From the NCBI GenBank assembly GCA_002687175.1, contig NYZP01000034.1:27951-91950 (forward strand): a stretch of 64,000 nt of DNA. The letters are read 5' to 3'. The notes under the pieces are model-generated. The model was given only the letters and a program-made list of their open reading frames with translations. It was not told where the DNA came from and ran no database searches. This document shows positions 3,441 to 45,392 of the stretch, piece after piece; within the stretch, counting starts at the first letter, position 1; each line of letters begins with the position of its first letter. Position numbers and translations under genes: made by a program. Source of the DNA: Parcubacteria group bacterium. GTDB lineage: Bacteria; Patescibacteriota; Patescibacteriia; Buchananbacterales; UBA6539.

Positions 3441-6400
3441 ATGAAATTTAGAAACAAAATTATTTTTCTACTAATTCCCTTGTTGCTGTTTTTAGGGTTA
3501 CTTGGTTTTGGCTTAACAGTTTTTGCCTTAGACTCTTGTCTGCCGACACAAGAGGGAACTACTCGTGATTGTGCTTTGCAAGAAGGTGTTTGTCAGGGTT
3601 CAGTTGAGTGGTGCTTGGGCGGTTTTTGGCAAGGCTGTGGCGCGCCAAATTATGGTGTTAACTATGAACTGTTTGAACTGAGTTGTGATGATACCTTGGA
3701 TAACGACTGTGATGGGTTAACAGACACCGAAAGTGGTATTGAAGATTCTGACTGTTGGTGTACTGTTGATTTTACACTGGCGGAAACCGAGTGTAATGAT
3801 GGTATTGATAATGATGGTGATACATTTTGTGATTTTGCAGGTTGTTGTGATGATGGCTCTGGTGAGCCACAGGCAAGTTGTAGTGGTACTTGGCTAGAAC
3901 CGGATCTTGGTTGTAACTCTGGCCAAGACAACAGCGAACTTAGTGCTAATACTATCTGTGGTAATCTTGTCTGTGAATTTGGGGAATCGTGCGCCGCTGA
4001 CTGTTCAACCGAAGCTTTTTGTAATGACGGGGTAGATAACGAAGAAAATGGCGAGGCTGATTGTGGCGACTCGGCATGCCTGGGTCAAGCTGACGGCACG
4101 GGCAGAATTTGTTGTTCTGGTGATGCCCAATGTGGCGGCTGTCAATACTGTCAACAAGGTCTACTAACAGAAGAGGCTGAATATGGTAATGGATCTACAA
4201 ATTTTATTAATCGTTGTGAGGTTCAAATAAATGGACCAAGTGGACGTTTATGTAATAATGACTGTTCTTTTTGTGATAATGGTTTTTGCACCAACAGAGA
4301 TGAAGGCGATACTACGGAATGTACCAGTGGATTTGTCTGCGATGAGCCTCCATCAGTAACTGATCCACCAACGGCGTCTTGCATATTAGCGATAACACCA
4401 TTTATTGCAACAACTTTTACTTCTCTTGGTATTGAGGCGGTAAATGGTGGAGCCCCTCCCAACCCAAACACTCTTATTATTTCAAATAGCGGAACCGGAA
4501 TTTTAGACTGGACTGCAACCGTAGATGTTCCCTGGCTTTCTTTAAATATTGCCAACGGTGGCAATGGACCAACAGAAGTTATTGTCTCTTACGATATTAA
4601 TGGCATGTCGGTTGGGTCTAATGTTGGCACAATTACTATTACCGACGATACCGCTACAAACGTTCCATTTTATATAACCATTACTTTAACCATTCAAGCA
4701 CCAACTATAGAGTTATCACCAACATTTTTTGAGGTTGAGGCAATGGAAGGTGATACACCAGCCAGCCAAACCTTGACCATTCAAAATAGTGGTGACGCTG
4801 TTTTAAATTGGCTGGCCGAAAATTTACCGGGCTGGCTTACCATTTTGCCATCTGGAGGAACTGTTACTGATGGTAGTTCAGAAAATGTTACTTTATCTTT
4901 TTCAGATTCTTTAATTCCTGATATTTATACTGATACGTTTGATATTTCAGATCCCAATGCCAGTAATGATCCTCAAACTGCAGATGTTGTATTAACCATT
5001 AATTCAGCACCATTACCAGTAATTTCTCTGTCTCAGACAACTTTTAGTAATTCAGCAGTTGAGGGTAGTAGTAATCCTGCTGATGAAATTTTAACTATCA
5101 CTAATAGTGGTGACAGTGGCTCAATCCTTACTTGGAGTTTTAGTGATAGTCCACCAGCTTGGTTAAGTTTTATTGGAGCTACCAGTGGCACATTAGCCCA
5201 AGGTGAGTCGGACAATGTTACCTTAAGATATGATATTTCAACTTTAAATCCAAGTATTAATAATTTTACTTTTGACGTAGAAGATCCAACGGCGCCAATC
5301 AGTCCTCAGACTGTTTCAGTTGATTTAGAAATTACCGCCGTGCCCGTGGCAACTATTTCACTGACTCCAGGTAGTTTTATAGCTAGTGCTGATGAAGGTT
5401 CCTCGCCGGCTAATCAAATTTTAAATATTGAAAATTCTGGTGGCGTTGGTTCCACGCTTACCTGGTCAGTGAGCAATGATCAGAGCTGGTTAAGTTTGTC
5501 ACCAGCTAGCGGCACAATTACTGCACCCGGTTCTACCAATGTTACTTTAAATTATACAACCGAGGGACTGGTTGATGGACCTCACTCAGACACAATTACC
5601 GTTGACGCCCCCGGTGCTACTAACGATCCGCAAACCGCCAGCGTGGATCTCACAATTATAAATGTTCCAGTCACTTTTCTTTTAACAGTTACTACTGATG
5701 GTGGGGGAACCGGCTCAGTTGTAACTGTTCCCTCAGGAGACATTAACTGTCCAGGAGACTGTAATCAAACTTATAACGAAGGTACTTTAGTTGAGTTAGC
5801 CGCTTCACCTGATGGTGGTTCTACTTTTAGGGAGTGGTCTGCTAACTGTGTAGTTAATGGAAATGGCAACTGTGAAGTTACAATGGATGCTGCTAGAGCA
5901 GTAACTGCCACTTTTGATCCTATTACAGAGTGTAATAATGGTAGTGATGATGATCTAGATGGCGACATAGATCTGCTAGACGGTGGTTGTGATGGTCCAT
6001 TAGACAACGATGAAACAAACTGTGGTGATGCCGTTTGTGAGGGTGGGGAATCTTGTTTAGCCGCTAGTTGTGCGGTCGATTGTGTTGAAGACATCCCTGG
6101 TGGTTGTACTACACTTGCCGGTGATGGGCCTGGTTTTTGTGGCAATGAATTTTGTGATCCAGGTGCTGGTGGTACCAGTGATAATGGTTGGATTTGTCAA
6201 CTTCGTGATTTTGATTGTGCTGGAACTTGTGGCCAGTGCACCGGTAGTGGTAGTTGTGAAATTAATCATAATTCTTGTACCGGCCAATGTTCTCAATGTG
6301 TATTTAATTCTGGTCCGGTATCTTATGATTGTGAGGGTGTATTTGACGAGCAAGATACCTATGGTGACCCGGGCAATAACGTTTTATGTAGTGCTGATGA

Positions 6401-7361: not shown

Positions 7362-8195
7362 ATGTTTGACGAAAAACCAATTCAACAAAATTCCGCTATT
7401 TCTCAACCTAGTGACAAGCCGGCCAATCCGCCACAAGATTTACCAATTGGCACACCAATTCCCGCGCCGGGAGCTCCTGACACCAGTGCTGGTCAACCGC
7501 CAAGTCAACCATCACCAGATAAACTGCCCGAAATACCGAAAGACCCGATACCCAGCCCTGATGCCGAGCCTCAAGATATTTTAGAGGGATTAGACAAGGG
7601 TGAAGATAAAGACGACCCAGTCAGAGGTCCGGCCGCTCCAATTGCTCCGCCGCCACCGATTATCGGTGACAAGTCACCAGTTCCCCCAGCGATGACACCA
7701 CCAGAAAAGCCAATCACTAAAGAGCCATTTTTTAAGGCGCACAAAAAGGCTTTCGTCGTTATTATTGTCTTACTGTTAGGCGGTGGTGCCTTAGCCTTTG
7801 GTGGTTACTATGGTTATTCTCTATTAGTAAATCCTGAGCCTACTGTTACGCCACCAGTTAATACCTCACAGACAAATCAAGGAACAACGAACACCAATCA
7901 GACAACTAACACCAATCAAGCTGTTAATCAAAATGCCAATGTTAATCAAGCACCGCCGCAACCAGTTGATACCGACCGTGATGGCCTGACCGACGAAGAC
8001 GAAGCCAAGTATGGTACCAGTCCAACGGAAGTTGATTCCGATCAAGATGGGTTAACCGATCGCGACGAAGTTAAGGTGTTTGATACTGATCCGAACAATG
8101 CCGACACTGATGGCGATACTTACCTTGATGGTGCCGAAGTTAGAGCTGGCTATGATCCAAAAGGTGATGGTCGTTTATTAGAGATTGAACCGTAA
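7362..8195 (+). CDS. Membrane-anchored protein with a Pro-rich N-terminus, one TM helix, a T/N/Q-rich low-complexity linker and TSP3-like Ca-binding repeats
   Basis: TM segment 'VVIIVLLLGGGALAFGG', linker 'TNTNQTTNTNQAVNQNANVNQ', and repeats 'DTDRDGLTDEDE', 'DSDQDGLTDRDE', 'DTDGDTYLDGAE'. Confidence 0.5.
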   Translation: MFDEKPIQQNSAISQPSDKPANPPQDLPIGTPIPAPGAPDTSAGQPPSQPSPDKLPEIPKDPIPSPDAEPQDILEGLDKGEDKDDPVRGPAAPIAPPPPIIGDKSPVPPAMTPPEKPITKEPFFKAHKKAFVVIIVLLLGGGALAFGGYYGYSLLVNPEPTVTPPVNTSQTNQGTTNTNQTTNTNQAVNQNANVNQAPPQPVDTDRDGLTDEDEAKYGTSPTEVDSDQDGLTDRDEVKVFDTDPNNADTDGDTYLDGAEVRAGYDPKGDGRLLEIEP

Positions 8196-12413: not shown

Positions 12414-12445
12414 ATTTATAATAAGACACCAGGTCTTATTTTTTA
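12414..12445 (+). terminator. Rho-independent terminator after ftsZ
   Basis: Stem 'ataagac'/'gtcttat' (12421-27 / 12433-39) with a 5-nt loop, followed by a T6 run. Confidence 0.55.
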
Positions 12446-12520
12446 GTCGCCAGAATGGTGAGCTAAACTTTTTTAGTCGCCAGAATTTCGGGCTAAACTT
12501 TTTTAGTCGATAATAACGGT
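12439..12520 (+). repeat. About 2.5 tandem copies of a 30-bp unit 'ttttttagtcgccagaatNNNgNgctaaac' in the nrdJ upstream region (possible operator/regulatory array)
   Basis: Copy 1 at 12439-12468 and copy 2 at 12469-12498 differ at 4 positions. A truncated third copy 'ttttttagtcga' follows at 12499-12510. Confidence 0.6.
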
Positions 12521-15137: not shown

Positions 15138-15659
15138 TTATGTCTCCTCTTGCCTGTTCTTTGCGAGAGCTTTTTCGAACATTTTTTGCATCTCTTCTTC
15201 CAGGCTCCACCGGGGAATCGGTTCTGCGTACCAGTTAGCGTCGAATAGGAGCTTGGAAAATTCCAGTAACTCTTCCCAGCTTGCGTCGCCATGAGTAAAT
15301 TGGAGAAATCCTACCTCAACTTCAGAGCTGTCCAATTCGACTGTTATCGCACTGAGAAGCGAGCATCCGGGCGGACCCATCGCTATTTCTCCTTCGTTGG
15401 TTAGTGTGGTAGTGGCGAGGTCGAACCAGAGCCAATGAGAGTCAGAAAACTCGAACCGCGGATTACGCCAGTCATCGCTACTCATACTCCGCCTAACACC
15501 AATGACGCCTGGGGCGAATTCCTGAACCTCCGCCGGAGATCCGTAGAAGGTCGGAGGGTCTTCCTCTTTGGCTACTACCAGAAGTTGCTTTCCTGTTAGC
15601 TTTTGCCGTTCTTCGGTATCGGTCATGACCTTTTCCTCTCGAGTCATTTTCACGATCAT
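15138..15659 (-). CDS. Hypothetical protein in a GC-elevated segment with its own promoter and terminator
   Basis: The listed ORF is 15138..15701; the likely start is 'MIVKMTREEK' (15659) or the 'MTDTEE' ATG (15626, preceded by a 'gagga' SD). A minus-strand promoter TTGACA-17-GATAAT lies around 15716-15688, and a minus-strand terminator hairpin at 15066-15110. GC is visibly higher than in neighbouring genes. Confidence 0.45.
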   Translation of the reverse strand: MIVKMTREEKVMTDTEERQKLTGKQLLVVAKEEDPPTFYGSPAEVQEFAPGVIGVRRSMSSDDWRNPRFEFSDSHWLWFDLATTTLTNEGEIAMGPPGCSLLSAITVELDSSEVEVGFLQFTHGDASWEELLEFSKLLFDANWYAEPIPRWSLEEEMQKMFEKALAKNRQEET

Positions 15660-15727
15660 TTTAGTTGACCTAGAACAATATATCTTATTATTATCACGCA
15701 TTATATTTAATTGTCAAGACTATCTTA

Positions 15728-16267
15728 TTGGTTTATAATAATGTAATGAAAAGCGACCTGGGAAAAATCCATGTCTACACTGGTGACGGCAAAGGAAAAA
15801 CCACTTCGTCATTTGGTTTAACCATGCGCGCCATTGGTGCCGGCTATAAAGTTTATATTATTCAGTTTCTCAAAGGTCAGGACTATAGTGAATTAAAGAT
15901 CATAAAAAAATTGCCTAAAGTTGGTTTTAAACGTTTTGGTCTAAAAACTTTTGTTTATCAAAAAGGCACCAGAGTGGACAAGAGTTTAGCCAAGCAGGCT
16001 TTAGACTGGTCATTCAAAATTGTTAAGTCGGGAAAATATGACATGGTAATCTTAGACGAAATATTTCCCGCAGTTTTTTTTAAACTTATTAAAAACAGTG
16101 ACATCATAAAAATTATCAAAGCCAAGCCAGAAAATGTTGAGCTGGTAATGACTGGCCGTCGGGCTCCTGAGCAAGTTATTAAATTGGCTGATTACGTTAC
16201 TGATATGAAAGAAGTTAAACATCCTTACCAAAAAGGCTTGGTGGCCAGGAAGGGGATTGAGGATTAG
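15728..16267 (+). CDS. cobO: Cob(I)alamin (corrinoid) adenosyltransferase, CobA/CobO/BtuR family
   Basis: 'IHVYTGDGKGKTTSSFGLTMRAIGAGYKVYIIQFLKG' matches the P-loop and N-terminal signature of CobA-type ATP:corrinoid adenosyltransferases. The start may be the ATG at 15746. Confidence 0.7.
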   Translation: MVYNNVMKSDLGKIHVYTGDGKGKTTSSFGLTMRAIGAGYKVYIIQFLKGQDYSELKIIKKLPKVGFKRFGLKTFVYQKGTRVDKSLAKQALDWSFKIVKSGKYDMVILDEIFPAVFFKLIKNSDIIKIIKAKPENVELVMTGRRAPEQVIKLADYVTDMKEVKHPYQKGLVARKGIED

Positions 16268-16270
16268 GTT
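16251..16270 (+). repeat. Direct repeat A (20/20 identical with 17998-18017): the 3' end of cobO, encoding '...VARKGIED*'
   Basis: 'aggggattgaggattaggtt' recurs 1.73 kb downstream. The second copy still encodes 'VVARKGIED*' but with synonymous codon changes (gcc agg -> gct aga). Confidence 0.8.
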
Positions 16271-16289
16271 GTAGGAGATTATTGTTGAT

Positions 16290-16540
16290 TGGCATTATCA
16301 TCAAGGTTGTCATAAATTTAGTGGCCCAGCCCTGAAGGGCAGGGCTATCGTGTAATTGTTATAAGCAGGTGACGAGAGTAGTCCCGCCGGAGGCGGGGCT
16401 TTATTGTATATCCCTGGACTAAAGGATTGGCCTGGGCGAAGGTGGGTACTGAGGTAGATCCATCCATCATTTTATGGGTACGGGGGGGTTGAGAAGGTTG
16501 GGGTAGGGTTTGAAATAGTAAGGGAGTTGATGTAATATAG
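16290..16540 (+). other. GC-rich, hairpin-dense noncoding segment at the left end of the insertion
   Basis: Hairpins 'gccc(a)gccct-UGAA-gggc(a)gggc' (16323-16344) and 'ccgcc-gga-ggcgg' (16385-16397), followed by a G-rich tract (16473-16512). Confidence 0.4.
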
Positions 16541-16544
16541 ATTT

Positions 16545-17978
16545 ATGGAAAGAGAATTAAATTACAATCCAGAAGCTGAGGTTCGCAAGGAACGCACTTC
16601 TCTAAGGGAAATTTTTACTTTAGCAAAAGGCAAAATAGTTGAAGAGCTAATAAAATTTTTGTCGAAAAAAGATGACGAAAAAGTTGAAGCATATGTTAAA
16701 AAGGTGGGAAAAATGGCTGATCTTAATAGAGCCACTGGAGATTTTTTTCGTTCACTTATACCACAATCCTTAAATCTCCCGCAACGGGAATATGAGCATA
16801 CCGATGAAAGAAATGTATATGAGCATCTTGTTGACAATGCGCAATCTGTCCAACAACGTCGTCATCAACAACCAGAAACTATCTCTGGAGAATCTTATAA
16901 AGATTATGCAGATAATCTAGATGACCCCAGTCTTTCTGAAGCCTCGGAAAAAATCAGTGCAGTAGAGGAATCTGAAACTGGTGGGGTTAAGACTCAAAGT
17001 GCAATAGCGTCATATTCACAGGAAGGTGGAAAGAATGTAGTTAGAGAATTTGTTTATAATAATTTTCATACAATGAAAGATGGCAGAGCAGTTAGTTTAT
17101 CATATGCCGCACTCTTGATCGTAGATATTAAAAGTGGTCAAGGAATCGAATTAAAACAATTACTGCCTACTGGCTATGAATTTGTTCCTTCTCAACTTAA
17201 CGAGAGGACTCTTGAATTAGTCAAGGAGAAGGGAGAATCAAGCTCAAAGCTCATCTCACGTTTAATGCGTCATGACCTTAAGGAATACAGAGGAACGAAA
17301 GAAGCAAAGGACAATTTTGTCCTTGCAGGGAAAAAGGTGGAGTATGGCGATCTAACTGAAAAAGGAGGTATGCTATCTCTCTTACATGAGATTGCTCATA
17401 GCTGGCAAAGGGCTCATGATTTGGCAGAAGGGCGATATAACTTTGAAGATTTTTATAAAGAAGTTGGCCTGGAAGTAGCAGTGTTAAATTCTATCAGGAA
17501 AGAAGTTGAAGCAGGAGAATGGGAGCAAGAAGATTATCAAAACAGAGTTCTACCCGAGACGATAGCTGACCTAAAGAAGATTGGTGTAGAAATTGACGAA
17601 GATTATTTTTACCAGACAGACAGACCTGGTCGAAAAGGAGAAATTCGGATAAGAAGGTTGGGCGAAGAGCTACCTAGTGGTGAGTACTCATATGATCACT
17701 TTTTTATCAAAACTGATAAACTTGCCCCCTTGGTTGATGATTACGCCAGAGAAGAACGAGATGCCTGGGCTCATGCCATTCGAGTTTTGCGTTTCTTAAG
17801 AAAAAAAGGGATTGATCTTGAACCACAGCTTAAGAGCTCAAAAGATTTTAGAGAAATTATTGACCCCGCTTTAGGCTCGTATCAAAAAAGTTTAGACAAG
17901 GAAGTTGAGTTTTCCGCCGAACCTGAAAGTAGAAAATTTCTTCGAAGAAAATCAATTGACCAAGCAGATGCGGTCTGA
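16545..17978 (+). CDS. Hypothetical 477-aa protein with an HExxH motif ('LLHEIAHSW'), possibly metallopeptidase-like, encoded inside the insertion
   Basis: The ORF is intact. I recognise no family fold beyond the HEIAH motif. GC is intermediate to high. Confidence 0.4.
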   Translation: MERELNYNPEAEVRKERTSLREIFTLAKGKIVEELIKFLSKKDDEKVEAYVKKVGKMADLNRATGDFFRSLIPQSLNLPQREYEHTDERNVYEHLVDNAQSVQQRRHQQPETISGESYKDYADNLDDPSLSEASEKISAVEESETGGVKTQSAIASYSQEGGKNVVREFVYNNFHTMKDGRAVSLSYAALLIVDIKSGQGIELKQLLPTGYEFVPSQLNERTLELVKEKGESSSKLISRLMRHDLKEYRGTKEAKDNFVLAGKKVEYGDLTEKGGMLSLLHEIAHSWQRAHDLAEGRYNFEDFYKEVGLEVAVLNSIRKEVEAGEWEQEDYQNRVLPETIADLKKIGVEIDEDYFYQTDRPGRKGEIRIRRLGEELPSGEYSYDHFFIKTDKLAPLVDDYAREERDAWAHAIRVLRFLRKKGIDLEPQLKSSKDFREIIDPALGSYQKSLDKEVEFSAEPESRKFLRRKSIDQADAV

Positions 17979-17982
17979 AATG

Positions 17983-18017
17983 ACGTGGTTGCTAGAAAGG
18001 GGATTGAGGATTAGGTT
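17983..18017 (+). pseudogene. Displaced partial duplicate of the cobO 3' end (direct repeat B)
   Basis: A short frame 'NDVVARKGIED*' ends in the same 20-bp sequence as cobO. The identity is higher at the protein level than at the DNA level. Confidence 0.6.
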
Positions 18018-18212
18018 ATAGTAAAGTTAATATAGTTTGCTAAATAAAATCGCCATAGTGATAGATGACGATTTTTTTGACAGAAATCAGTTTGATTATT
18101 TTCTTATTTCGTGATAAAACAAGCTTATTATTGCACTTTGAAATTACCATAACACAAATTTGTGTTTACCAATTTAAATCCGGAAGCGGGTAGCTTACAA
18201 GGAGAAGGCACC

Positions 18213-20003
18213 ATGAAAAATGAAGGTGAAGTTGTTAAGCTCTCGCTACCACGAGGGTATACTAAACTACCAGTTGAAGAACTGGAAAGTCTGTACCGCG
18301 AGATCGAGGATCGCCGCACCGATGATGCCGAGCTGGCCGAGACACTTAAGCATCGGTTAAGAAAGGTCATCAGACGTAGGAAAGGGTCTTTAAGTATTGC
18401 TACAACAACTCCGTCAATTGAGCTTGATTCCGGTTTGCCAAGTTTTCCGGTACACAACACCGGAGGTTTGCCGGTTGGCGGGGCGAATTGTCTGCTTGAT
18501 CCGATCTCAATTGTTCATGAACAATGGTTCAGAGTTGTTAAGGAAATTGCCTGCGGCCTGATTGGCCAAACCGATGGGATAACTCCTACATTCAGTATTG
18601 AGGAAGTGCGCGACGACAGAAAGAGTGCCGTCCGCTTTGTAGTTCGTTGGAGTATTCCACGATTTTTGAGTATTGAAGATCTGTTAGGGGTCTTCAAAGT
18701 TACTCAAGAATCTTTTAGGAGCCGTCAGGTGACTGGACACAAAAGCGTTGATCGACCAAAAGCCAGTGGCTGGGAGCAAGTTATTAGCTACTATGACGTT
18801 AATGACCATATTGTTAAAGGCCGCCGAGGTGTCTATTTTGGGCCTGAAGGTGATTGGGATAATCATGCTACTGGCGTAATCGTGTCGCGACAGTTCAAAA
18901 ATACTAGCGAAGCCATGTATCTGCAGTCGGAGTATCCGGACGAATTTCTTTCACGTTGGGCTCAAACAAAACCGAAAAAGTGTGAGACATTCATCGAAGT
19001 TCGACTGCCGTCAGAAAAGGAAAAGTTTACCCAGCAGGAAGACGCCTTGTATCTGGTGGTTCAGTTGGCGTTTTTGTTCGCCAAACAAAAACGTTTAGAA
19101 AAGCGTCTTCTAATGGCCGCTATTTTCAAAGCGCTCAACCGAGTCGGCACCGCGCCGATCGCCAGAGAGAAGCTGTTTGGTATGCGTGAAATTTTAGAGG
19201 CGGTTGAGCGTACTTTGTTACTGCCACTGGAACAACCAGTGCTGGCTCAAGAGCTGGGTATTGTTCCGGAATCCATTCTGGAGGTCGGCGTTAAGGGAGT
19301 GGGCAAGACTTTTCTGGCTCATTACCTGATGGCCGGTGATTACGCGGCCATTTTTGTGGCCATTAATTGCAGTTCGTTGTTGATCGATCTTCAGCAAAGA
19401 GGTGCTTCTATCTTGGAACGGATCGATCAGATTTCCGATGAATGCCAGCTACCGGTGGTGTTGATTATCGATGACATTGATATTGTTCTGGATAAAAAGG
19501 AAAAAACAGTGGCTATGGTACTCAACTGGATGCAAAGTATCCGGCAGAAAGGTTTTTACATTCTGGCCACCACCAACTATCCGGAACGGATCGATGACCG
19601 GATGATGGAACCTGGACGGTTGTCTCGCATCTTGCACGTTGACTTGCCTAATCCACAGGATCGTTGTGGAGTGTTAGACAGCCACACCAAGGATCTACCG
19701 ATTGCCGAAAAAGAACGGCAAGCGGTCATTAAGTGGTTGGCCAAGGAAACCAAGGGCTGGACCCAGCGTTTTCTTTGGGAGTTAGTCCAAGAGGCCGCCC
19801 GTAACTGTGGTTTGGCCTTACTTGGCGGAAAAATTCAAAGTCAGGCTAATGGCACCGAAGTGATGCTCAAGCGGGAGCACTTTGAACAAGCGTTAAAGGA
19901 ATTGTCCCAGCGCATTGATAAGAAAAGTATTGGTGAGGAGAACGATAGGGTTCATAAATTTGTGAGTAAGAAGAGGCAAGAGATTGGTTTTCGGACCGAT
20001 TGA
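18213..20003 (+). CDS. Classic-clade AAA+ ATPase (CDC48/FtsH-like ATPase module) with an uncharacterised N-terminal domain of about 330 aa
   Basis: Walker A 'GVKGVGKT', Walker B 'VVLIIDDID', and second region of homology 'LATTNYPERIDDRMMEPGRLSRILHVDLPNPQDR'. SD 'aaggag' precedes the ATG at 18213 (the track ORF starts at 18162). GC is clearly elevated. A 16-bp perfect palindrome 'aacacaaatttgtgtt' lies about 50 bp upstream. Confidence 0.65.
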   Translation: MKNEGEVVKLSLPRGYTKLPVEELESLYREIEDRRTDDAELAETLKHRLRKVIRRRKGSLSIATTTPSIELDSGLPSFPVHNTGGLPVGGANCLLDPISIVHEQWFRVVKEIACGLIGQTDGITPTFSIEEVRDDRKSAVRFVVRWSIPRFLSIEDLLGVFKVTQESFRSRQVTGHKSVDRPKASGWEQVISYYDVNDHIVKGRRGVYFGPEGDWDNHATGVIVSRQFKNTSEAMYLQSEYPDEFLSRWAQTKPKKCETFIEVRLPSEKEKFTQQEDALYLVVQLAFLFAKQKRLEKRLLMAAIFKALNRVGTAPIAREKLFGMREILEAVERTLLLPLEQPVLAQELGIVPESILEVGVKGVGKTFLAHYLMAGDYAAIFVAINCSSLLIDLQQRGASILERIDQISDECQLPVVLIIDDIDIVLDKKEKTVAMVLNWMQSIRQKGFYILATTNYPERIDDRMMEPGRLSRILHVDLPNPQDRCGVLDSHTKDLPIAEKERQAVIKWLAKETKGWTQRFLWELVQEAARNCGLALLGGKIQSQANGTEVMLKREHFEQALKELSQRIDKKSIGEENDRVHKFVSKKRQEIGFRTD

Positions 20004-20020
20004 TTGTTTACGGCTCGAGT

Positions 20021-20052
20021 CAAATAAGACTTGAGCCATTTTTTTAGAAGGA
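20021..20052 (+). terminator. Terminator after the AAA+ gene
   Basis: 'ggctcgagtc aaataa gacttgagcc' followed by a T7 run. Confidence 0.6.
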
Positions 20053-20161
20053 ATTTATATTAAATATCTAAGTGTGTCTTGACAAATTCGGTAATGTTTG
20101 ATAGTGTTTTATGATGTTAAAAATAGCGGCGGCTGTTCAAAGTTAGAGGAGGAAAATAGCT

Positions 20162-20416
20162 ATGAAAGTCGTAGTAATGAGAAATGCCTTAGATGAGCTG
20201 GGGAAGAGGATGGTTATGGGAATCGTCGAAGCCATTGGTGGTGAAATCCTCAGCGCTCCAGACACCATGGTTGCCTTGGCAAATGACGACTGCAAAGATG
20301 GTCCAAGTATCATTTGCAGCATCATGAAGGATGAGAGACAGACATTTACGGCTGTCGAAGAATTGGCAGGCAAACAAGAGATTGAGGTTGTCAATCTTGA
20401 CTTCATGAAGGTATAA
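20162..20416 (+). CDS. Small (84-aa) hypothetical protein with a strong RBS and its own terminator
   Basis: SD 'agaggagg' lies 8 nt upstream of the ATG. A perfect hairpin terminator 'aggtcgtcaaaa/ttttgacgacct' plus T-run at 20451-20480. Confidence 0.5.
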   Translation: MKVVVMRNALDELGKRMVMGIVEAIGGEILSAPDTMVALANDDCKDGPSIICSIMKDERQTFTAVEELAGKQEIEVVNLDFMKV

Positions 20417-20547: not shown

Positions 20548-20571
20548 CATATTACCTTAAAAAATAGTTTT

Positions 20572-20760
20572 AATTTCAGGGAAGTGAGGTGTGATTCCTC
20601 CGCTGACCCGCAACTGTGAAACCTCTATCTAAATTAGGTAAGGGGTTAAGCCAGACCACTGAAATTAGAGCTAACTATAATTCACTAAGCTCTTCGAGGT
20701 ACGAGAGTCGGTGATGTCTGATATGGACATTTTCGCTCTCCCTTGAACAGGGAGATTTTT
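20572..20760 (+). promoter_or_regulatory. Cobalamin (AdoCbl) riboswitch with an SD-sequestering terminator-like expression platform
   Basis: 'cagGGAAGtgaGGTGtgAtTCCtccGCTGaCCCGCAACTGTgAA' matches the conserved 5' core of the cobalamin riboswitch. A B12-box-like 'AAGCCAGACCACTG' lies at about 20647-20660. The 3' hairpin 'ctccc ttgaaca gggag' plus U-run (20735-20760) pairs with the 'agggag' SD 9 nt upstream of the ATG at 20766. Confidence 0.7.
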
Positions 20761-23177: not shown

Positions 23178-23629
23178 AGTTAATTGCCAAAATAATTATA
23201 ATCGTTACCATATTTGCTGCTGGTTTTTATATTGGTCAACAAGCCTTGGCACCAGCAAATGGCTCTAAAGTAGTAGGTGAAGAAAATAGTGAACAAATAA
23301 CAGTCAGTTTAATGTTTGACTTTGGTGATGGTGAAGTACGAACTTTTAATGATGTGGTTTTATCAAAGAATGCGACGATGCTTGAACTTTTAGAAAAAGT
23401 AACTACTGACAATGATTTAGAATTTAGGATCACAGATTATGGTGGTGGTTTAGGAGCGTTAATTGAGTCAATTAATAATTATTCATCTGATGCTCGGAAT
23501 AATCGCTATTGGCATTTCTGGGTGAATAATGTTTACTCCGACATTGGAGCCAGTAATTACATTTTAGAAAATAGTGATGTGGTTGAATGGAAATATACTT
23601 TAAATCAATTTAATTTAATAGTTAATTAA
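23174..23629 (+). CDS. DUF4430-like protein (beta-domain of the transcobalamin/intrinsic factor family; putative cobalamin-binding)
   Basis: N-terminal TM/signal. C-terminal 'NRYWHFWVNNVYSDIGASNYILENSDVVEWKY' matches the W-x-F-x-VNG..GA..Y.L..GD.V.W.Y signature of DUF4430. The start overlaps the previous gene (ATGA). Confidence 0.55.
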   Translation: MKLIAKIIIIVTIFAAGFYIGQQALAPANGSKVVGEENSEQITVSLMFDFGDGEVRTFNDVVLSKNATMLELLEKVTTDNDLEFRITDYGGGLGALIESINNYSSDARNNRYWHFWVNNVYSDIGASNYILENSDVVEWKYTLNQFNLIVN

Positions 23630-24228: not shown

Positions 24229-24395
24229 TAATAAAATTTCTGTTTGTGGTATAATATATGAAGTTAGCTTAGAAGCGTTACAGTTGAATTTAATTTTATA
24301 AAAACTATATGACTTAAGATATTTCTATATAAAATACATTCGCCAAAACAAAAATAAAAATTTTAATCAATTTAATTTAATAAGTAAAAATATTT

Positions 24396-42967: not shown

Positions 42968-43260
42968 ATCCTTGACTAATTTAATTAGATAGATTATCAT
43001 AATTAAAACTATGACTTCCCAACGAATTAACATTTCGACTGCGCTCAGTGCAGGCATTATTATTAACATTATTATCCAGCCTTTAGGTGGAAGTCTTTCG
43101 ATGAAGTAAACACTAAGCAATACGATCTGACAGACCTTCCACCAGGAAGGTTTTTTTGATTGTTTTGCTTGGGCAGAACATATACTTAGGAGGAGGGCAC
43201 CTGCTCTTTGTCACAACTTAACCAGAAACTTTGGAAAATTTACAGAAGGAGAAACATAAC

Positions 43261-43890
43261 ATGAGTTCAGGTAGTCTTTTAATGAATGACGTTCCCGACG
43301 GGAGTGTAGCTACTCGTTTTCAAACTGAAGACTATATTAAGGCGATGATCGGTACCATTGATTTTGGTGACGTAACGATTGGACCGGAAATTGTAACAAA
43401 GGTTTTCCACCGTTGTCAGGAATTGGCAACTCAAGGAGTTACCTTTGACGAAGCTCAAGCTTCGTTTATACTACTGGTCTTGGAAGAATTTGGTTTAGAG
43501 TTAGCCCAGTTCAAATGCTTGTCCGGTCAGGTTACAGTATCTTTTGGCGAGGACAGAGAATCGATATGTGACGCAACCATAAAGGTTGATACCGGCGTCG
43601 ATGAGCCAAAGCATGTAGCTTATGAGGATGCTACACCAGTTAGAGCCTTAAACGGTGCTTTGCAGAAAGTTGTTGTTTCTTTAGCTGACGGGATTACCTT
43701 AGGCAATGTTGTTAAGGAACGTATTCCAACTTCTGATGGCGCTCCAGAGGTTTATCGGGCTACTATTACCTTGGAAAATTGTACTGATACGTGGACCTCT
43801 GTTGGCGTTGGACCGAACCTGATTGAGGCCTTTATTAAGGCCTTGCTCGATGGCTATCGCTATGCCGCTTATCGGCACAATTTGCCATAA
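43261..43890 (+). CDS. Hypothetical protein with a LeuA-allosteric-domain-like C-terminus
   Basis: 'TDTWTSVGVGPNLIEAFIKALLDGY' resembles the GxGPxxAxxxAL motif of the 2-isopropylmalate synthase regulatory domain. SD 'aaggag' precedes the ATG at 43261. Terminator at 43899-43937. Confidence 0.35.
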   Translation: MSSGSLLMNDVPDGSVATRFQTEDYIKAMIGTIDFGDVTIGPEIVTKVFHRCQELATQGVTFDEAQASFILLVLEEFGLELAQFKCLSGQVTVSFGEDRESICDATIKVDTGVDEPKHVAYEDATPVRALNGALQKVVVSLADGITLGNVVKERIPTSDGAPEVYRATITLENCTDTWTSVGVGPNLIEAFIKALLDGYRYAAYRHNLP

Positions 43891-44255: not shown

Positions 44256-44636
44256 ATGGCCAGTATGGAGTCTTGCTGGGAACTAGCTGATGTTAGATTA
44301 TCTACTGTTAGGTGTGGAGAACAAATGGTTTTTGTTAATCTAAGATTTGGTCAGGAAAATCATAATGATACCTCAAATGACAGCTGTCTTTTTTCAGCCG
44401 TGATTAAAGCTATTGCCAGAGCAACAGACATTGAACTATCTTTGATTCAATTTAATGTCCGGCAGGTAAATGATCACGAGGTAGAAGTTCACGCTACAAT
44501 TCGCAGCAATGGACAATTAACTATTGTTACTGGAATTGATAATGATATTATCTCAGCTTTTGCCAAGGTGGTGGTTGCGGCTGTTAACCGTTCTTTAGAG
44601 AAAAATAAGACGCCAGGATTTATACCTGGATGTTAA
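44256..44636 (+). CDS. Hypothetical protein, LeuA-allosteric-domain-like (paralog-like of 43261..43890)
   Basis: 'GQLTIVTGIDNDIISAFAKVVVAAVNRSL'. Confidence 0.35.
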   Translation: MASMESCWELADVRLSTVRCGEQMVFVNLRFGQENHNDTSNDSCLFSAVIKAIARATDIELSLIQFNVRQVNDHEVEVHATIRSNGQLTIVTGIDNDIISAFAKVVVAAVNRSLEKNKTPGFIPGC

Positions 44637-45041: not shown

Positions 45042-45111
45042 CGGCGTGTAGCTCAGGAAGAGCGCCTTGCTTGGGGCAAGGAGGTCGTAGGTGAAAATCC
45101 TGCCACGCCAA
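45042..45111 (+). tRNA. tRNA-like element, possibly tRNA-Pro(UGG), with an atypical T-loop and a short D-loop (could be a pseudo-tRNA or att remnant)
   Basis: Acceptor 'cggcgtg'/'cacgcca' (C1-A72 mismatch), U8 A9, D-stem gctc/gagc, anticodon stem ccttg/caagg, loop 'cuUGGgg' (T33, G37), variable 'aggtc', T-stem gtagg/cctgc. The T-loop is 'tgaaaat' rather than TTCRANY. Confidence 0.3.
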
Positions 45112-45392
45112 CTCAATCTTCCGGTCCTAGACAAATTAGTCTAGGACCTTTTTTTATTTGACATATTTTTTTCAATGATATAGTCTTTATATATAGTATG
45201 AAAAAAGCAATTTCTGAAAATTTAGCCCATAAGTGGTTTTTCGTCACTTATTTTACTGACCGAACAGGTTAGCTGGCTTTATTTATAGTAATTGTTTAAA
45301 CAAAAACTTAAAAAATAAAGTCAACTGACCGACATAAGGCCAGTTTTTTGTTTTTTGGGAGTAGCATGGAACCTTATAACAGGGAGGAAAAA

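Follow-up and report, generated by a model that had tools for sequence, protein, structure and literature searches.

Repeat-flanked cassettes of p477, a zincin-like protein gene of Patescibacteria, at the 3′ ends of cobO and other targets: a putative integrative or homing-type element

Introduction

How a single gene can come to lie between two copies of the end of its neighbor is the question raised by a 64-kb stretch of DNA (the window; contig NYZP01000034.1, positions 27,951 to 91,950) from a marine member of the Patescibacteria, or Candidate Phyla Radiation (CPR), ultra-small bacteria whose gene gain is little understood. In the window, the corrinoid adenosyltransferase gene cobO is followed by an insert that holds only two hairpins, a leader, and an open reading frame (ORF) of 477 codons, here called p477, and then by a second copy of the cobO 3′ end. 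A first-pass annotation of the sequence had described the insert as containing GC-rich hairpins and a 477-aa protein with an HExxH motif, but no integrase, and a terminator scan, ORF calls, and domain searches bore that description out. Comparison of p477 with its homologs suggests that repeat-flanked insertion is a recurrent property of the family and not of this locus only, and we file the p477 cassette as a putative integrative or homing-type element of a new variety.

A Direct Repeat Re-Encoding the CobO C-Terminus Brackets p477

The window contains exactly two occurrences of the 20-mer AGGGGATTGAGGATTAGGTT flagged in the first-pass annotation, one at 16251-16270 and one at 17998-18017; none were expected by chance (100 shuffles). 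The perfect repeat extends to 21 nt and is the longest exact direct repeat of the entire window; it is embedded in 44 nt of ungapped similarity at 84% (37/44), and the two copies are spaced 1747 nt apart (the unit length), with 1726 nt of unique DNA between the 21-nt cores. The left copy is the genuine 3′ end of cobO, encoding KGLVARKGIED and the stop codon, whereas the right copy encodes (ND)VVARKGIED and a stop, with the codons GTG GCC AGG of cobO replaced by GTT GCT AGA, synonymous changes that had also been read correctly from the sequence. Four of the six coding mismatches in the repeat arms fall at codon position 3, and to the left of the core 13 of 19 nt agree in register (empirical P ~1e-4). 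In relatives, cobO departs from the 21-mer at 2-5 positions, so the perfect core does not reflect general conservation of the DNA. The pair has the anatomy of attL and attR sites, in which the core is perfect and the left arm, although diverged, is still cobO-like, and leaves cobO intact: its product matches PF02572 at 203.7 bits (cutoff 25.7; E=3.2e-60) over profile positions 3-171 of 172, as expected of a full-length CobA/CobO/BtuR adenosyltransferase. The p477 TGA stop is followed in frame, at 17976-18014, by 11 codons of the displaced cobO fragment (cobO′) running to TAG; that gene and fragment share one frame is probably a coincidence, judging from the cassette of locus L038 (Table 1), where the fragment is out of frame.

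A repeat of 21 nt is short, and metagenome assemblies are its source, so an assembly artifact or a chance match has to be weighed. Against either stand the expectation of zero matches, the differing flanks of the two copies, and the differences between their left arms at 6 of 19 positions. In addition, contigs from at least five independent samples (L001-L007; including GCA_002434675.1 and Tara Oceans), built with different assemblers, carry the same structure base for base, and therefore the assembly duplication that the first-pass annotation had named as a possible refutation is ruled out; we regard artifact or chance as practically excluded.

The closest CobO proteins are found in Buchananbacteria, Falkowbacteria, and "Patescibacteria group" metagenome-assembled genomes, at no more than 72% identity. 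Four relatives (L008-L011; CobO 63-72% identical) share with the window the order ftsZ, class II ribonucleotide reductase (RNR), cobO, adenosylcobalamin (AdoCbl) riboswitch, and DUF4430 B12-uptake genes, yet all four lack p477. The riboswitch lies 39-88 nt past the cobO stop in L008, L009, and L011, compared with 4.29 kb in the window, and L010 has an unrelated 1.8-kb insert in this spacer. In agreement with the first-pass annotation, the comparison supports the p477 segment as an insertion, specific to this lineage, at the 3′ end of cobO. Since the window and L010 hold different inserts and three relatives hold none, the spacer between cobO and the riboswitch of the B12 operon is an insertion hotspot. 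In the window it contains, before the riboswitch that bounds the ancestral spacer on its far side, the repeat-bounded p477 unit and, to the right of this unit, an AAA+ ATPase gene and an 84-aa ORF.

In all five genomes, B12 salvage and use are grouped in one compact locus: the riboswitch (20553-20717 in the window, 2504-2658 in L008, 10610-10761 in L009, 12332-12480 in L010, and 10555-10708 in L011) precedes DUF4430, prenyltransferase-like, and DUF6580 genes and lies 3′ of the class II RNR gene and cobO. In L008 (2728-3717) and L011 (10813-11811), a further prenyltransferase-like gene (alpha-alpha toroid), equipped with a second AdoCbl riboswitch of its own, is interposed between cobO and the DUF4430 gene; direct repeats seen in the spacer of these two loci are due to that riboswitch duplication.

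Repeat-Flanked Cassettes Recur at Other Targets

About 33 loci with p477 homologs were fetched, and in nine of these, the window included, the gene is bracketed by direct repeats of 18-45 nt that copy the end of an adjacent gene (Table 1). In seven of the nine cassettes, no more than 17 nt separate the p477 stop from the start of the right copy, and the left copy lies 0-370 nt 5′ of the first cassette gene. The nine repeats have no motif in common, and the cassettes share no terminal sequences, inverted repeats, or leader. With pairwise identities of only 26-41% among the nine proteins, the cassettes represent independent events spread across the family. Marginal repeats of 14-16 nt that were AT-rich or palindromic (L031, L033/L057, L039, and L049) were not scored as positives.

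Table 1. Targets and repeats of the nine p477 cassettes.
Locus	Target	Repeat	Unit and remarks
Window	cobO	21/21 core in 37/44	1747 nt
L038 (Buchananbacteria)	DAGK-domain gene	44/45 nt	1483 nt; p477 ATG 2 nt after target stop; right copy 4 nt after p477 stop
L047/L048	38-aa ORF	36/38 nt	Similarity extends at the protein level
L040	gatB	52/62 nt plus extension	Downstream fragment matches Pfam GatB_Yqey, E=5e-14
L067	tRNA-Glu(TTC) 3′ end	18/18 nt	Final 17 tRNA nt plus 1 nt
L071	tig	34/35 nt	tig convergent; intact copy at right
L072	Terminator hairpin after ykuD	32/33 nt	
L032 (Falkowbacteria)	comM/yifB	38/40-nt core	3-kb unit; 30-aa fragment starts 5 nt after p477 stop
L050	Not identified	27/27 nt	3.25-kb unit with two extra ORFs

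Homeologous extensions beyond the core occur in L032, L040, L047, and the window, the clearest being those of comM (30 aa) and gatB (Pfam-positive). In L032, whose unit also holds a HicA-like toxin gene and three small ORFs, the two 30-aa ComM ends (GRTIADLTAEPNVTSSHVAEALQYRPKIGE versus GRTIADLEGVTQIQSAHVAEALQYRPKIGE, each followed by a stop codon) match in register at 9 of 9 positions beyond a scrambled 33-nt stretch, and conserved ComM residues are retained; in L040, a 70-residue fragment of the GatB domain is conserved at the protein level. Because of this distant in-register match and the conserved domain piece, the fragments are not decayed target-site duplications. They are instead orthologous gene ends from another lineage, which means that the cassette carries the target-gene end of a previous host.

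These features bear on a transposon-like origin, in which staggered cuts 18-45 nt apart would have left a long target-site duplication that later decayed by mutation. The five cassettes with sharp, near-perfect repeats of 18-45 nt (L038, L050, L067, L071, and L072) would fit such a process, and because the functional copy would take half of any later divergence, as synonymous changes, decay could mimic the observed codon-position bias. However, repeat length is variable, neither terminal inverted repeats nor conserved ends were found in the cassettes, no transposase fold was found for p477, and neither the 9/9 match past 33 nt in L032 nor the 70-residue GatB piece in L040 can be the product of neutral decay of a duplication. 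We regard this origin as very improbable.

The same survey bears on the proposal of the first-pass annotation that the insert is a decayed or non-autonomous integrative element, or cargo delivered in trans. A decayed element or incidental cargo does not fit: p477 homologs are repeat-flanked at eight other unrelated targets, again with no integrase, and it is the 477-aa gene that is constant and the "att" sequence that varies, the opposite of random cargo in decayed integrase islands. Homologs of the protein, for which the first-pass annotation had advised a search beside the same repeat, lie beside repeats whose sequence differs at every locus. A version of the proposal nevertheless deserves consideration, in which an integrase of the tyrosine or serine type, now lost or located elsewhere, joined an attP site to the cobO 3′ end with p477 as a passenger. 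The core-plus-arm anatomy and the use of gene 3′ ends, including that of a tRNA (L067), are classic for integrases, and as only 64 kb of the genome is visible, such an enzyme could act in trans. Yet a tyrosine or serine integrase, which the first-pass annotation had suggested looking for, was found neither in the window nor in the annotated contexts of the homologs; the nine independent cassettes share p477 and not an att motif, the reverse of the constant site and variable cargo of cis-mobilizable elements (CIMEs) and integron cassettes; and in none of the ~33 loci do an integrase and p477 occur together in a full-length parent element. More broadly, domain searches of the whole window detected no integrase, transposase, other recombinase, or known nuclease domain, and the annotated neighborhoods of the homologs hold no integrase, transposase, or known nuclease. 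We consider an integrase-dependent island unlikely.

At L031, two tandem tRNA-Leu(TAG) genes (7736-7927) lie directly 5′ of the p477 homolog, and a GC-rich palindrome, CCTGCCTGCCGGCAGGCAGG, is found at and just 5′ of the start of the second tRNA gene (called at 7848-7927). Related copies occur 5′ of the p477 gene and within its end; the palindrome may be another integration footprint or an element resembling repetitive extragenic palindromic (REP) sequences.

Specificity of the Association

A self-comparison of 512 kb of CPR loci returned 16 repeat pairs at distances of 300-8000 nt, seven of which are p477 units. Among the remaining pairs, none duplicates the end of a neighboring gene, a tRNA 3′ end, or a terminator; they are tandem paralogs, duplicated riboswitches, paired tRNA genes, palindromic or terminator-like hairpins, and one structured repeat (L052). 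As a second control, significant flanking repeats were found around 9 of 197 other ORFs in the fetched loci, several of which are non-CPR cobO loci, and all nine are accounted for by tandem paralogs, duplicated riboswitches, REP-like hairpins, or the structured repeat of L052. The latter is a 91-nt imperfect (86%) direct repeat (3692-3779 and 5520-5610) with strong hairpin potential, which flanks an alanine racemase-like gene of a CPR contig and has no Rfam match at the gathering threshold.

These controls bear on a passive, homology-guided origin, in which a repeat-cassette-repeat fragment or circle is taken up by competence and recombined at the short target segment by host RecA or single-strand annealing, p477 being kept as a useful or addictive gene (for example, a zincin effector or toxin) and not as a mover of DNA. 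The cassette does bring its own target homology, the absence of a motif common to the repeats implies a sequence-independent process, the window encodes ComEC (PF03772), and p477 is protease-like and acidic. Competence has been reported to be prevalent in Patescibacteria (PMC12455944), which likewise counts in favor of passive uptake. A general mechanism of this kind, however, should leave repeats at other recently acquired genes, and none were seen in the 512 kb, including around three foreign genes beside cobO; nor would it predict the tight junction between the p477 stop and the target fragment in seven of nine cassettes. The identity cores of the window, L050, and L067 (18-27 nt) are also very short for RecA, lengths of this order being at or below those that it uses efficiently. 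Both the passive route and the retention of p477 for another benefit seem unlikely to us, to about the same degree as an integrase-dependent island.

p477 Represents a New Family with a Zincin-Like Signature

No match to p477 was found in Pfam, NCBIfam, PHROG, or PADLOC. A word-indexed search returned 37 homologs, and an exhaustive profile search returned ~100 clusters (50% identity) at E<1e-30 and 400 at E<1e-3; CPR bacteria account for every named source of the family, and no homologs were found on viral contigs (IMG/VR). Longer members of the family have no informative domain fusions, and its distant short relatives belong to no Pfam family. In an alignment of 33 sequences, H281, E282, H285, E404, R405, W408, and H410 are invariant and define two conserved motifs, LLHEIAHxWQ (HEIAH at 281-285) and EERDAWAHA, both of which are kept by eight of the nine repeat-flanked proteins. 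Two of the cassettes carry decayed copies, interrupted in L040 and with a degenerate second motif in L067, and there the repeats are the most diverged or most distant.

An AlphaFold2 model built from the family alignment (mean predicted local distance difference test 86.3, predicted template modeling score 0.83) has long N-terminal helices, a beta-rich middle domain, and a helical C-terminal part. It places HExxH on a helix (275-290) preceded by strands, and E404 and H410 on a second helix (393-420), the combination of HExxH with a downstream Glu/His that is expected of zincins. SprT-like proteins, M78 (ImmA/IrrE), M91 (NleD), DUF6782, and the C-terminal domain of ArdC share this arrangement, with the HExxH helix following strands and a Glu on a later helix. 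Individual family members have sub-threshold Pfam matches to DUF6782, SprT-like, M78, and M91, but p477 falls below every curated threshold, as do the other members, and its 477-aa architecture is unmatched: a Foldseek search of the model against PDB and BFVD returned nothing at E<0.01. Taken together, the alignment and the model indicate that p477 represents a new family: its active site bears a zincin-like signature, but the rest of its architecture is unmatched.

Searches with Pfam and Foldseek returned no LAGLIDADG, GIY-YIG, HNH, His-Cys, PD-(D/E)xK, or EDxHD domain or fold, and p477 has neither a transposase fold nor membership of a known class (DDE, HUH, serine, tyrosine, or DEDD). The protein is acidic (isoelectric point 5.4; family median 5.5). 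Nothing in these results identifies p477 as a DNA enzyme, and nothing speaks decisively against such a role.

A Proposed Mechanism of Insertion

We consider it likely that the DNA from 16271 to 17996, together with one copy of the repeat, is a minimal mobile cassette, composed of a short leader and p477, that integrated by recombination across a carried copy of the target-gene end. The cassette would carry a short copy of the cobO 3′ end directly after the p477 stop, and this copy would recombine with the resident cobO 3′ end in a Campbell-type or att-like fashion, with the crossover inside the 21-nt identical core. The left product would consist of the native 5′ part of cobO, the core, and the left end of the cassette with its own terminator hairpins, leaving cobO intact; the right product would consist of the cassette-borne cobO′ arm, the core, and the native downstream DNA with the old terminator. 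In the usual notation, the junctions would be attL = B-O-P′ and attR = P-O-B′. A discrete excised intermediate, either a circle or a linear repeat-cassette-repeat molecule, would be involved, with a predicted empty site of ...GGTGGCCAGGAAGGGGATTGAGGATTAGGTTATAGTAAAGTT and a predicted circular (attP) junction of ...GCGGTCTGAAATGACGTGGTTGCTAGAAAGGGGATTGAGGATTAGGTTGTAGGAGATT. The cassette conforms to a family-wide pattern, p477 homologs in other CPR bacteria being arranged likewise behind other conserved genes, each with a fragment of its own target beside the stop codon.

In both the window and L032, divergence is found in the arm that adjoins p477 and the core is identical. Such a product is expected if the incoming and recipient DNA had no more than a short stretch of the target in common and recombined where the two matched best. 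This implies that a discrete element came in; exchange of a long piece of chromosome by ordinary homologous recombination does not fit. Of the site-specific integration put forward in the first-pass annotation, insertion at the cobO end through an att-like repeat fits the data; mediation by an integrase is conjectural.

As for the catalyst, p477 is the only constant gene, and the right end of the cassette coincides with its stop codon; for these reasons our leading guess, which we hold at somewhat less than even chances, is that p477 promotes its own mobility in the manner of a homing or selfish gene. In keeping with this, other foreign genes at cobO lack repeats and intact copies of p477 have crisp ones. 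A more specific idea, less probable than not but with a substantial chance of being right, is that p477 represents a new class of self-mobilizing single-gene element: a zincin-like metal enzyme, with no kinship to the tyrosine, serine, DDE, and HUH enzymes or to homing nucleases known so far, would cut or recombine DNA at the 3′ end of a conserved gene and insert its own gene by means of a portable copy of the target end carried directly behind its stop codon.

Several observations weigh against the cassette model or against p477 as its catalyst. The family is acidic, has a zincin protease-type motif as its sole recognizable feature, and has no precedent as a mobility enzyme, and no DNA-binding, recombinase, or nuclease fold was detected in p477 with PDB, BFVD, and Pfam. 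Uniform decay of a 44-nt duplication would produce a 21-nt perfect run with P ~0.05, and an old duplication is therefore compatible with the window taken alone. Approximately 24 of the 33 loci have neither a flanking repeat nor a protein-level fragment, and the position of p477 near secA in two lineages could reflect vertical inheritance; not every copy of p477 is a fresh insertion. Finally, alignment of the cobO 3′ regions of relatives, as the first-pass annotation had advised, confirmed that L008-L011 lack the insert but supplied no precise empty site at close range: all seven contigs of the population are filled, the next CobO is only 72% identical, and the site is also occupied in L073, which comes from another strain of the L038 host. 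Scans of JGI metagenomes and IMG/VR with the exact 21-mer gave zero matches, and hence neither an attP nor an attB junction was seen.

Comparison with Known Systems

CIMEs and integrative islands are att-flanked islands without an integrase of their own, which derive from and coexist with integrase-bearing parents and have conserved att sites and variable cargo. The p477 cassettes resemble them in lying at the 3′ ends of conserved genes or a tRNA, in having direct repeats that share an identical core, in sparing the target, and in lacking an internal integrase. They differ in that the p477 gene is constant, the att sequence differs at each locus, and no integrase-bearing parent was seen among the loci examined; moreover, the unit can shrink to one ORF, 4 nt, and the repeat (L038). 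Integron cassettes, which end in imperfect palindromes (attC), form arrays at attI through the action of IntI. A compact one-ORF unit, sometimes promoterless (L038), with the site directly after the stop and a presumed circular intermediate, is common to both, but the p477 site is a copy of the target-gene end, there is no array, the repeats are non-palindromic (attC covariance models were not run), and no IntI is encoded in the window. Unlike insertion sequences and DNA transposons, the p477 unit has no known transposase, inverted repeats, or fixed-length duplication.

Homing endonuclease genes, among them the Allomyces atp6 case, offer a further parallel. In fungal mitochondria, free-standing homing endonuclease genes have been described as selfish ORFs placed between a conserved gene and a C-terminal gene fragment (PMC6279837). 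The p477 cassettes likewise combine an intact gene, a putatively selfish ORF, and a displaced or duplicated homeologous 3′ fragment, and p477 is patchily distributed, occurs in single copy beside a conserved gene, and has degenerate copies (L040 and L067). In contrast to these genes, p477 is acidic, lacks known homing-endonuclease motifs and folds, and resides in bacterial and not organellar hosts.

Self-mobilization by p477 would add a new enzymatic route to DNA mobility, and the compact module, which brings its own homology for insertion, might be of use in engineering; if its cassettes are moved in trans, they would be markers of an unrecognized CPR integration pathway. In either case the family provides a testable handle, with defined junction sequences and an invariant HExxH.

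Features of the Insert and Neighboring Genes

The features of the insert and its surroundings are listed in Table 2. The second of the two hairpins at the left end of the insert (16380-16400) resembles a terminator, with TTTATTG directly after it, and cobO transcription probably stops there, whereas the hairpin just to the right of the displaced cobO fragment is, plausibly, the original cobO terminator. The 277-nt leader folds no better than shuffled sequences (z = -0.79), has no Rfam match, and bears no likeness to the leaders of the other cassettes; a shared, guide-RNA-like leader was rejected on these grounds.

Table 2. Coordinates of features at the cobO locus of the window.
Feature	Coordinates	Strand	Evidence
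187-aa ORF between RNR gene and cobO	15138..15701	-	No family match
cobO, ATP:corrinoid adenosyltransferase, intact target gene	15746..16267	+	Pfam PF02572; syntenic operon in relatives
Left repeat copy (attL-like): last 12 cobO codons, TAG stop, and 7 nt	16231..16274; core 16250-16270	+	Repeat search
Two GC-rich hairpins, left end of insert	16320..16400	+	Terminator scan; folding
Promoter-like site TTGAAA-17-TAATAT, 7 nt 5′ of p477 start codon (putative)	16510..16538	+	Consensus scan only, 9/12 matches
p477, sole gene of insert, 477 aa	16545..17978	+	ORF; homolog alignment; AlphaFold2 model
Right repeat copy (attR-like), cobO′ fragment; starts at final base of p477 stop	17978..18021; core 17997-18017; coding 17979-18014	+	Repeat search; protein-level detection
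Hairpin ATCGCCAT-N8-ATGACGAT then T7	18049..18079	+	Read from sequence; missed by scanner (one stem mismatch)
AAA+ ATPase gene, outside cassette	18213..20003; GTG start possible at 18162	+	Pfam AAA, E=4e-16
84-aa ORF, outside cassette	20162..20416	+	ORF list
AdoCbl riboswitch 5′ of DUF4430 B12-uptake genes	20553..20717	+	Rfam RF01482, 57.6 bits, E=1e-8

Three other genes near cobO are distinguished by their GC content at third codon positions, which is 0.48 in the AAA+ gene, 0.52 in the 84-aa ORF, and 0.52 in the 187-aa ORF, compared with 0.28-0.34 in host genes and p477. The AAA+ gene and the 84-aa ORF are absent from the relatives, in which the spacer between the RNR gene and cobO holds other genes or none. 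All three look recently acquired, being lineage-specific and compositionally foreign, and self-comparison of the window revealed no flanking repeats around any of them; the AAA+ gene and the 84-aa ORF (18213..20416) appear to be an insertion separate from the cassette. Among the three, a family match exists solely for the AAA domain of the ATPase, which is CDC48/FtsH-like, with weak matches to IetA/IteA, and the 340-aa region N-terminal to it has no match. A defense system composed of p477 and the AAA+ gene was considered and rejected, as PADLOC was empty for p477 and gave only a weak IetA-like match for the ATPase. The adjacency of the two genes was treated as coincidental, p477 homologs elsewhere having no AAA+ neighbor.

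Three further observations concern other parts of the window. Approximately 2.7 tandem copies of a 30-nt unit (TTTTTTAGTCGCCAGAAT..GCTAAAC) at 12439-12510 lie directly 5′ of a TTGACA -35-like hexamer and the RNR gene and could be an operator array; the unit is unlike the NrdR box consensus. A 21-nt AT-rich sequence, TTTAATCAATTTAATTTAATA (18 nt exact), occurs at 23600-23620 and 24362-24382, ~15-30 nt 5′ of two consecutive start codons (those of the DUF6580 gene and the next ORF), and may be a shared leader or regulatory motif; an insertion scar is unlikely because the DUF6580 gene is syntenic in relatives. Lastly, two short ORFs of 209 and 126 aa (43231-43890 and 44256-44636), which match only the LeuA dimerization domain and lie just 5′ of the single tRNA gene, tRNA-Pro(TGG) (45042-45112), may be gene fragments at another variable spot.

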